Shown: one piece after another, positions 32,927-33,631 of the stretch
Layout: each line of letters opens with the position of its first letter
Position numbering within the stretch: position 1 is the first letter of the stretch
Virus record (IMG/VR): IMGVR_UViG_2855455421_000002
Location: 1 to 34,101 of that record
Length of the DNA: 34,101 nt
Reading direction: 5' to 3' (one strand)
Origin: a virus
Made by a program: the position numbers and the translations under genes
Notes under the pieces: generated by a model
What the model saw: only the letters and a program-made list of their open reading frames with translations
Told to the model about the DNA's origin: nothing
Database searches by the model: none

Positions 32927-32969
32927 ATAATTATGATATAAATCGCGGCTCATTGTTCATTTGTTGTGT

Positions 32970-33072
32970 CCCTTCCTCTACCAGCCAACTCGAAGAAGCT
33001 GGATGCGTCGGGACAACTCGCAGCCGATTCGATGAAGTGGATGCTCGTCTCTACCAATTGAGCTAAGTTGGC
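32970..33072 (-). repeat. tRNA-operon spacer element, copy A (includes a 24-nt near-exact copy of the tRNA-Thr 5' half at 33049-33072)
   Basis: Shares a core of about 52 nt with copies B and C, and a further 30 nt or so with copy C. There is no shared reading frame. Confidence 0.8.
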
Positions 33073-33098
33073 ATACATATGATGCACATTATGTTATA

Positions 33099-33174
33099 TG
33101 GTGGCTCGGGACGGAATCGAACCGCCGACACAAGGATTTTCAGTCCTTTGCTCTACCGACTGAGCTACCGAGCC
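33099..33174 (-). tRNA. tRNA-Phe(GAA), CCA encoded
   Basis: Anticodon loop CTGAAAA. Confidence 0.9.
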
Positions 33175-33212
33175 GTATTAGGTTTTATGCTGTTTGCTTG
33201 TCCTGGATTGTG

Positions 33213-33289
33213 CCTCTTCCTCTTCGAGCTAATTCGAAGATGCTGGATGCGTCGAGGCAACTCGCCTCTGCCGAGTAGGCTGCCAAGCC
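33213..33289 (-). repeat. tRNA-operon spacer element, copy B (5' part is 18/24 identical to the tRNA-Phe 5' half)
   Basis: Plus strand: CCTCTTCCTCT-N15-GATGCTGGATGCGTCGAGGCAACTCG, then ctctgccgagtaggctgccaagcc. Confidence 0.8.
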
Positions 33290-33316
33290 ATCATGATTTT
33301 CCTAATTTTTGAACAA

Positions 33317-33392
33317 TGGCGGTCCCGACGGGACTCGAACCCGCGATCTCCTGCGTGACAGGCAGGCATGTTAACCACTACACTACGGGACC
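33317..33392 (-). tRNA. tRNA-Asp(GUC), CCA encoded
   Basis: Anticodon loop CTGTCAC. Confidence 0.9.
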
Positions 33393-33396
33393 AATT

Positions 33397-33473
33397 TGGT
33401 TGCGGGGGCAGGATTTGAACCTGCGACCTTCGGGTTATGAGCCCGACGAGCTACCGGACTGCTCCACCCCGCG
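33397..33473 (-). tRNA. Initiator tRNA-fMet(CAU), CCA encoded
   Basis: C1-A72 mismatch, three G-C pairs closing the anticodon stem, and loop CTCATAA. Confidence 0.85.
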
Positions 33474-33526
33474 ACGATAGGAAAGTAAATTAATTTGCAC
33501 AATGTTCTTAGCGTTGTTATCCGTTA

Positions 33527-33619
33527 CCTCTTCCTCTACAAGCTGATTCAAAGATGCCAGATGCGTCGAGGCAACTCGAAGTGAATTCGATGAAGCAAAG
33601 GCTCGTCGCTCCACTCCAC
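33527..33619 (-). repeat. tRNA-operon spacer element, copy C
   Basis: Plus strand: CCTCTTCCTCT-N15-GATGCCAGATGCGTCGAGGCAACTCG, then ATTCGATGAAG-N5-GCTCGTC as in copy A. Confidence 0.8.
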
Positions 33620-33631
33620 AACGATTGAAAA

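Follow-up and report, generated by a model that had tools for sequence, protein, structure and literature searches.

The stretch of DNA analysed here (hereafter the window), which comprises all 34,101 nucleotides (nt) of IMG/VR virus record IMGVR_UViG_2855455421_000002, carries an operon of 15 transfer RNA (tRNA) genes, three spacers of which each harbour one copy of a repeated element that we call E. In the direction of transcription the genes are Asn, Ser, Glu, Val, fMet (initiator, formylmethionine type), Asp, Phe, Thr, Tyr, Trp, His, Gln, Gly and Cys, followed by an internal promoter and Leu, and the 14 spacers between them measure 4, 14, 8, 158, 4, 142, 172, 6, 7, 17, 15, 5, 8 and 61 nt. 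The long ones thus lie between Val and fMet (158 nt), Asp and Phe (142 nt) and Phe and Thr (172 nt), the remaining eleven being 4-61 nt. An earlier note, made from the letters of the window alone, had singled out these three spacers and placed one copy of the same element in each, and spacer measurement and a repeat finder bear out both points; its statement that ten spacers are 16 nt or shorter needs a small correction, as the limit for those ten is 17 nt. The coordinates are collected in Table 1. The promoter match in the Cys-Leu spacer suggests that tRNA-Leu may have a promoter of its own besides that of the operon.

Table 1. Positions of the tRNA operon, its signals and the three copies of E with their tRNA partners in the window.
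Feature	Position	Strand	Basis and remarks
15-tRNA operon	32194..33972	-	ARAGORN and Rfam tRNA matches; hosts the three elements
Promoter match, 12/12	34024-33997	-	upstream of tRNA-Asn
Promoter match, 11/12 with extended TG	32317-32289	-	within the 61-nt Cys-Leu spacer
tRNA-Leu(CAA)	32194-32276	-	final gene of the operon
Intrinsic terminator	32146-32127	-	3' of the operon
Copy A, truncated tRNA-Thr 5' copy, positions 1-24	33049..33072	-	GCCAACTTAGCTCAATTGGTAGAG; ends ...GTAGAG
Copy A, complete E, 82 nt, ACGAGC...GGGACA	32967..33048	-	alignment, core scan, profile
Copy A, helix 5' arm UGUCCC	33010..33015	-	pairs with 32972-32967; covariation
Copy A, helix 3' arm GGGACA	32967..32972	-	covariation
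Copy A, tail and leader	32927..32966	-	first bases CAAC = tRNA-Thr positions 25-28
Intact tRNA-Thr(CGU), downstream of copy A	32851..32926	-	ARAGORN
Copy B, decayed tRNA-Phe 5' copy	33266..33289	-	alignment; 18/24
Copy B, 5'-truncated E, model positions 26-81 only	33211..33265	-	profile, core scan, alignment
Copy B, helix arms UGCCUC and GAGGCA	33259-33254; 33216-33211	-	
Intact tRNA-Phe, downstream of copy B	33099..33174	-	ARAGORN; 36-nt tail and leader 33175-33210
Copy C, decayed tRNA-fMet 5' remnant	33607..33623	-	...GTGGAGCG
Copy C, complete E	33525..33606	-	alignment, core scan, profile
Copy C, helix arms UGCCUC and GAGGUA	33573-33568; 33530-33525	-	one G.U pair
Intact initiator-type tRNA-Met(CAU), downstream of copy C	33397..33473	-	ARAGORN; 51-nt tail and leader 33474-33524

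The repeat finder grouped the three long spacers into one family, the common core of which was aligned by MAFFT. A 23-nt piece of this core occurred three times at up to 2 mismatches, and not once in 100 shuffles of the window. Each long spacer begins, in the direction of transcription, with a 5' look-alike of the next tRNA, continues with E of about 82 nt and ends with a tail of 36-51 nt that leads into the intact tRNA. The layout of E is ACGAGC - ~25 nt - CGAGU - UGYCYC - GACGCAUC - 22 nt - AGAGGAA - GRGRCA. The tRNA part of copy A agrees with the tRNA-Thr 146 nt downstream at 23 of 24 positions, and the similarity reaches 11 nt further upstream into the leader (91% over 35 nt by the repeat finder); the remainder of its tail, as read by eye, resembles the E-less 44-nt Phe-Thr spacer of a related operon (L002). 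Copies related to copy B, found at loci L070, L010 and L099, have the substitutions GGCTTGGCAGC in common with it. In the family, the fMet junction reads GGAGCA followed by ACGAGC and falls at tRNA position 14. The tRNA look-alike that the earlier note had described before each copy is thus present in all three, copy C being preceded by a decayed fMet 5' end, and the proposed order of age, with A the youngest and C the oldest copy, fits these data, in which B and C are decayed.

A scan of viral contigs returned the window's own sequence twice and the orthologous operon L002, which has E in the Asp-Phe spacer only and a Phe-Thr spacer of 44 nt. Species-representative genomes were then scanned with a 19-base pattern, which gave at least 120 stretches on which all family counts rest; among the stretches listed there were at least 199 pattern matches, and an nhmmer profile built from these found at least 264 copies. 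E was present in Geobacillus, Parageobacillus, Anoxybacillus, Anoxybacteroides, Paranoxybacillus, Aeribacillus and Thermolongibacillus, and also in Bacillus kwashiorkori, Neobacillus, Cytobacillus, Robertmurraya, Halalkalibacterium, Tuberibacillus, Bhargavaea and Fictibacillus; besides the Bacillaceae, the pattern gave a few chance matches in unrelated high-GC genomes. For G. zalihae the fetched pieces alone contained no fewer than 29 copies, and for G. thermocatenulatus no fewer than 26. No description of E was present in the literature found by full-text searching. At the gathering threshold, Rfam 15 detected only tRNAs in the whole window, and relaxed searches (E-value up to 10 on 32840-33720, and up to 1 on four other loci carrying E or its sister family E2, described below) returned nothing significant on the elements, in line with the earlier note, which could name no matching RNA family. 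The lone model touching an element was YrlA (17.5 bits, E-value 1.1, cutoff 69), across tRNA-Phe and the 5' end of copy A; further YrlA matches on the four other loci scored 23-32 bits, again below the cutoff of 69. Membership in any Rfam family, including tRNA, T-box, Bacillaceae-1, rtT, YrlA, introns and small ribozymes, was rejected, as none reached its gathering threshold.

No match to E was obtained in the phage collection. Two records of the plasmid collection, L129 and L130 (NZ_CP015440.1 and NZ_CP051163.1), do contain E, where its neighbours are arginase, sigW, hisD, cmpA and sprT, genes expected on the chromosome; these records may be chromosomal segments and not true plasmids, and the collection offered no evidence of E travelling on plasmids. 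The sole copy seen outside a tRNA operon is in Fictibacillus gelatini (L042, 7327-7407), where E follows a GCGGGTG remnant of a tRNA-Gly 5' end, has no tRNA downstream and lies about 170 nt upstream of the gene for ribosomal protein S16, the latter recognised by eye from its N-terminal translation.

The context of E follows strict rules. All 233 copies with a downstream tRNA in the fetched DNA lay in the same orientation as that tRNA, which bears on the question, raised in the earlier note, of whether copies in related Bacillaceae always sit 5' of tRNA genes. The next tRNA was Gly(UCC) in 72 cases, Lys(UUU) in 45, Asn in 31, Thr in 30, Phe in 19, Arg(UCU) in 18, fMet type in 17 and Asp in 1. 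It followed E at a distance of 18-64 nt unless further tandem units intervened, which had a period of about 145-157 nt; the arrays comprised up to 3 units per tRNA, and one locus had 8 copies in 2.3 kb. The 5' part preceding E was of the same kind as the next tRNA and ended at position 12-13, 14, 17-18, 24, 26 or 31, the junction nearly always reading AG-N-N immediately before ACGAGC; among 163 distinct copies, neither the A (-4) nor the G (-3) was present in fewer than 90%. These loci held 193 partial tRNA 5' copies, of which 177 were followed by E and 16 by E2; since all 193 precede one or the other, such copies do not occur in these loci without these elements. Mismatches between the truncated copy and the real tRNA amounted to 9.8% at positions 1-7 and 3.3% from position 8 to the junction, and to about zero at positions 18-31, a pattern compatible with a constrained unit that consists of the D-arm side and E. 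Leaders were 0.78 identical within arrays as against 0.42 for first units, and E itself was slightly more alike by genus (0.79) than by tRNA kind (0.77); the latter clustering could reflect gene conversion or lineage-specific spread. In about ten Gly-type copies inspected from several genera (e.g. L096 at 1797-1870, L112 and L105), E ended in GGCA and the tail began UG(A/G)....GCGUG, so that an AUG stood seven bases after GAGG and was followed by a conserved GCGUG, a feature not seen with the other tRNA kinds.

Several loci preserve the signature of insertion. At L028 (Arg, between positions 18 and 19) E stands between GTCCCAGTAGCTCAGCT and GGATAGAGCA, and the ten bases after it resume the tRNA at 10 of 10 positions. 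At L094 (Phe, between 12 and 13) it stands between GGCTCGGTAGCT and CAGTCGGTAGAGCA, and at L118, L030 and L075 (Lys, between 17 and 18) between GAGCCATTAGCTCAGTA and GGTAGAGC, the flanks rejoining exactly in either case. This exact rejoining into tRNA sequence indicates that E was inserted; at L028 and L094 it is nested within a truncated tRNA copy that already had E2 at position 26. In G. jurassicus (L081, 4420-4560) E interrupts an Arg(CCU)-like gene after position 26, and the tRNA resumes at position 27; the anticodon arm, T arm and CCA end of this gene are intact and its 5' acceptor strand is decayed, which makes it the only near-complete interrupted tRNA seen. Behind many copies the tail starts by continuing the tRNA (CAAC for Thr, TCTGAC for Lys, GTAAAG for Asn), and remnants of the tRNA 3' part were found behind Thr, Lys, Arg and Asn copies, with weaker ones behind Thr and Phe copies by eye, including a trace of the acceptor 3' strand in the Thr tails. 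In H. halodurans, E lies between 64-nt direct repeats, each made of 33 nt of leader and tRNA-Gly positions 1-31, with one mismatch.

It is common for orthologous spacers to differ in whether they contain E, as exemplified by the Phe-Thr spacer (172 nt in the window, 44 nt in L002). In G. proteiniphilus the 32-nt E-less Asp-Phe spacer differs in one place from the opening 32 nt of its E-bearing counterpart in another operon of that genome, and hence the truncated copy occupies the former start of the tRNA. The idea in the earlier note that a small element inserts into tRNA genes at the D-arm/anticodon-stem junction and regenerates the 5' half stands in part. The element is indeed multi-copy and bound to tRNA 5' halves, its flanks are precise and an intact tRNA lies downstream, but the junction is not a single site, and the tRNA 3' remnants behind E suggest insertion into a full second copy of the gene and not a built-in regeneration of the 5' half. 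At one further locus (L117, 1790-2240, Anoxybacillus sp. J5B_2022), tRNA-Arg positions 1-26 lead into two E copies, after which come some 150 nt of other DNA, then a T arm and 3' acceptor strand that match, and finally a terminator-like run; this arrangement may specify a tRNA-like transcript with a very large insert in place of the anticodon arm.

Among the collected homologues, covariation, which the earlier note had suggested looking for, supported one helix of 6 base pairs (bp), UGYCYC/GRGRCA, which closes 37 nt and shows compensatory changes. In 72 distinct sequences 99.3% of helix cells were paired, as compared to 92.7 ± 0.6 in shuffles, and 45 cells had double changes as compared to 16.4 ± 2.7, a number reached by 0 of 500 shuffles; slid registers paired to 60% at most. 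The search pattern has wildcards at the two covarying positions and does not include the 3' arm of the helix. The variants UGCCUC/GAGGCA, UGUCCC/GGGACA and UGCCCC/GGGGCA occur together in single genomes and with single tRNA types. Searches for further helices by RNAalifold, mutual information, a stacked-pair scan and two explicit hairpin tests revealed no pairing above the expectation for independent columns, and folds of single sequences on both strands were no more stable than those of shuffles (z from -0.9 to +0.4). Conservation was assessed after removal of one ascertaining copy per locus, which left 126 distinct copies; all 19 pattern bases were matched in 52% of these, and 23 positions outside the pattern were conserved at 95% or more. 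We infer that the conserved helix and blocks form a recognition surface, either for mobilisation or for a role at the RNA level.

The sister family E2, which likewise follows truncated tRNA 5' copies, always after AGCA, has the consensus ..CGAAUAAGCUUCUUUGA..CAGCGyACC-rCUC-GAGC..CUUGArUAAGC..CUGAGA-GyGG.. and was found at L028 (~5540-5680), L126, L045, L043, L057, L058, L097, L104, L108, L113, L117, L127, L052 and L023. Its stems differ from those of E and show compensatory variants of their own (CCACUC/GAGUGG, CCGCUC/GAGCGG, CCAAUC/GAUUGG and CUCAUC/GAUGAG). Its junctions at D-arm positions 12 and 17 bear an A that does not belong to the tRNA (AGCA before CG). E2 had no match in Rfam.

A coding role was also considered. 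The earlier note had taken the three copies to have no common reading frame; they do share open frames in the core, one per strand, yet its conclusion that they are non-coding stands. A small peptide, SCLDASSIFELARRGRG in sense or PLPLPANSK.LDAS.QLAA in antisense, would be in keeping with these two frames being open in all three window copies and with several inter-copy differences at shared third codon positions. We regard it as hardly credible, since no frame is open in all copies of the family (95% at best, over 16 codons), TAA interrupts the consensus in the very sense frame that is open in the window, the flanks as read by eye offer no conserved start codon or Shine-Dalgarno sequence, and a 1-nt indel distinguishes the first half of Geobacillus-type copies from that of Anoxybacillus-type copies. 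Moreover, the covarying pairs join Cys/Arg synonymous sites to Gly/Asp and Leu/Pro replacement sites, which is explained by base pairing only.

Other roles were rejected as well. As a promoter E is unconvincing, there being only weak 9/12 promoter-like matches near copy A, and as a terminator too, since the single terminator-like match, which lies where copy C begins on its 5' side, is within chance (2 found, 2.2 expected). Likeness to a K-turn, C/D-box, T-loop or T-box was looked for by eye, and no claim is made, as registers misfit and motifs are broken by variable positions. A tRNA intron is contradicted by the absence of the tRNA 3' half in nearly all copies (except L081 and, partly, L117) and by the lack of a match to intron models. 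A miniature inverted-repeat transposable element would require terminal inverted repeats, whereas the ends ACGAGC... and ...GRGRCA form none and the sole inverted repeat lies within the 3' two thirds of E; nor is there a target-site duplication, as the flanks rejoin without a duplicated or lost base in L028, L094, L118, L030 and L075.

The observations establish E as a structured repeat family that is tied to the 5' halves of tRNAs, arose by insertion, is amplified in tandem and is situated inside the transcription unit of the operon. Each E sits in what was once a duplicate of the next tRNA gene, and little or none of the 3' part of that duplicate is left. As to its nature, we lean, at a little short of an even chance, towards a non-autonomous insertion module specific for tRNA genes, namely their 5' halves, which was amplified by recombination and is possibly now inactive or co-opted. 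On such a course E would be, or would have been, a non-autonomous module that targets the D-arm/anticodon-stem side of tRNA genes, and its insertions would survive only beside a retained or restored intact copy of the gene. The disrupted copy would then lose its 3' half, and the unit of 5' part, E and tail would multiply, shrink or be lost as the directly repeated tRNA 5' parts recombined unequally. E would be co-transcribed with the operon and be removed with the 5' leader upon RNase P cleavage of the next tRNA. A bolder version, which we consider clearly less likely than not, takes E and E2 together as a new kind of mobile element that recognises the D-arm side, cutting after AG-N-N, that is mobilised by an enzyme in trans and persists by leaving or recreating an intact tRNA beside the truncated 5' copy, and that has maybe been co-opted as a leader RNA module; if true, it would be the 5'-half counterpart of the 3'-half restoration by integrases.

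Several observations weigh against an insertion module. Identity between copies at different tRNA kinds of one genome does not exceed 92.6% (median 80%), and there is thus no sign of current or recent transposition, near-identical copies being usual for active miniature elements. No autonomous relative was found, the partial nhmmer matches being truncated copies or locus edges, none of which flanks an open reading frame; no mobilising enzyme was found at the fetched loci, and E lacks terminal inverted repeats and a short target duplication. The Gly(UCC) junction, CCUCAGCC followed by ACGAGC, is unchanged from Halalkalibacterium to Geobacillus, which is unexpected, as direct repeats on both sides should make such a unit easy to lose. 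With the ascertaining copies removed, pattern positions are 96% conserved as compared to 48% for the 20 most variable positions; this site-specific conservation in old copies argues for some continuing constraint, and such retention of blocks is a more usual sign of host-level function than of selfish DNA in decay. Nor do wobbles and mismatches in the helix reveal which strand is active (10 U.G versus 7 C.A or A.C).

Much of this would suit a functional leader RNA, in which E and the adjacent D-arm act in cis on how the next tRNA is processed or folded or on its yield, or persist as a stable by-product of about 130-170 nt that binds a protein or RNA, their spread being secondary. The unvarying agreement of orientation with transcription (233/233), the constant E-to-tRNA distance of 18-64 nt, the strong conservation of blocks in old copies, free of ascertainment bias, and a helix that is compensated within single genomes and single tRNA types, with other stem sequences in E2, all speak for it, and so does the fact that the tRNA 5' part and E are retained in pseudogenes whose 3' part decays. 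Mesophilic Bacillaceae have a solitary tRNA-Gly(UCC) gene with the unit upstream of it, and in two loci promoter-like hexamers were seen by eye before the unit. Even so, just one 6-bp helix is supported, other hairpins staying at the level of independent columns, and single sequences fold like their shuffles; many orthologous spacers do without E; and the acceptor strand is the least conserved portion of the truncated copies (9.8% mismatches, as against about 0% next to E), for which reason a decoy for the 3' acceptor strand of the tRNA is not favoured. We take a leader function to be a real but minority prospect. A purely passive origin would have tRNA-gene duplication and illegitimate recombination at D-arm AGC motifs produce E as a scrambled tRNA remnant, spread by gene conversion with neither insertion activity nor function. 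The two halves of E are indeed alike and its ends D-arm-like (UUAGCU..GGUAGAG) in the alignment read by eye, slippage between AGC repeats explains the A at the E2 junctions, and the homogenised array units (leaders 0.78 versus 0.42 in first units) and the clustering by genus (0.79) over tRNA type (0.77) agree with it. We consider it improbable all the same: flanks that stop and resume at the same tRNA coordinate, in three tRNA types and genera, are unlikely to result from two independent deletions, and neutral remnants would not keep 96% conserved blocks and a compensated helix across genera.

The comparison with known systems places E as a small structured interspersed repeat with an unusual and strict target context, which fails at least one defining feature each of the REP-like, IS200/IS605-derived, integrase-type and rtT systems. 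Repetitive extragenic palindromic sequences and bacterial interspersed mosaic elements (REP/BIME) and the Rickettsia palindromic elements are small structured repeats, the last of which insert into genes. E resembles them in being shorter than 150 nt, multi-copy and non-coding, with a compensated stem, lineage variants and arrays, and in being old yet conserved; unlike them it resides in tRNA operons, where it takes a single orientation and is fused to the truncated 5' copy of a tRNA, and is no compact palindrome, its 6-bp stem closing a 37-nt loop with a 32-nt arm 5' of the stem. No partner of the RAYT type was found, no search aimed at one having been made. With the palindrome-associated transposable elements (PATEs) derived from IS200/IS605 it shares seamless insertion without target duplication, in fixed orientation and 3' of a short motif (AG-N-N), as well as a stem near the right end. 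It differs from PATEs in that paired subterminal hairpins at both ends are lacking (one supported stem, none in the left arm), in that just two target positions are fixed (A at -4, G at -3), in that a 4-nt target does not explain the restriction to tRNA sequence, and in the lack of a linked transposase at the fetched loci. The rtT units of the E. coli tyrT operon are likewise repeat units of a tRNA operon with a partial tRNA copy, co-transcribed and freed by tRNA processing. They carry the tRNA 3' end and are confined to a single locus in a single lineage, whereas E carries the 5' parts of seven tRNA kinds in many genera and shows no match to rtT in sequence or model.

Integrase-driven elements, too, are flanked by a direct repeat of part of a tRNA and keep the tRNA intact, as seen for E in the 193 partial copies and the 64-nt repeat of H. 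halodurans. In the case of E, however, the repeat is the 5' part of the tRNA and not the 3' part, the insert is about 82-135 nt, the junctions vary and there is no integrase, just the 82-nt E and the 18-64-nt tail between the repeats. What appears to be a classical example of integrase-driven tRNA integration is at hand in the window itself. Positions 1-32058 are a prophage with Pfam matches to tail endopeptidase, minor tail protein, XkdF-type phage protease, portal, large terminase, DnaB-like helicase, antirepressor and a GH18 domain, and its tyrosine integrase (30877-32058) adjoins tRNA-Leu(CAA), which suggests, from the arrangement of the genes, that the prophage integrated at the end of the tRNA operon. 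Its position next to the operon accounts for the presence of the window in a collection of viral contigs; nothing in the window links the prophage to E.

If this account of E is true, the tRNA operons of a whole group of industrially used thermophiles contain dozens of copies of a conserved element that annotation pipelines ignore, and its presence would explain the tenfold-longer tRNA spacers, the partial tRNA copies and the differences in arrays between close strains. Depending on the reading, E would represent either a new targeting principle for small mobile DNA, directed at tRNA 5' halves, or a new RNA module whose production keeps pace with that of abundant tRNAs.

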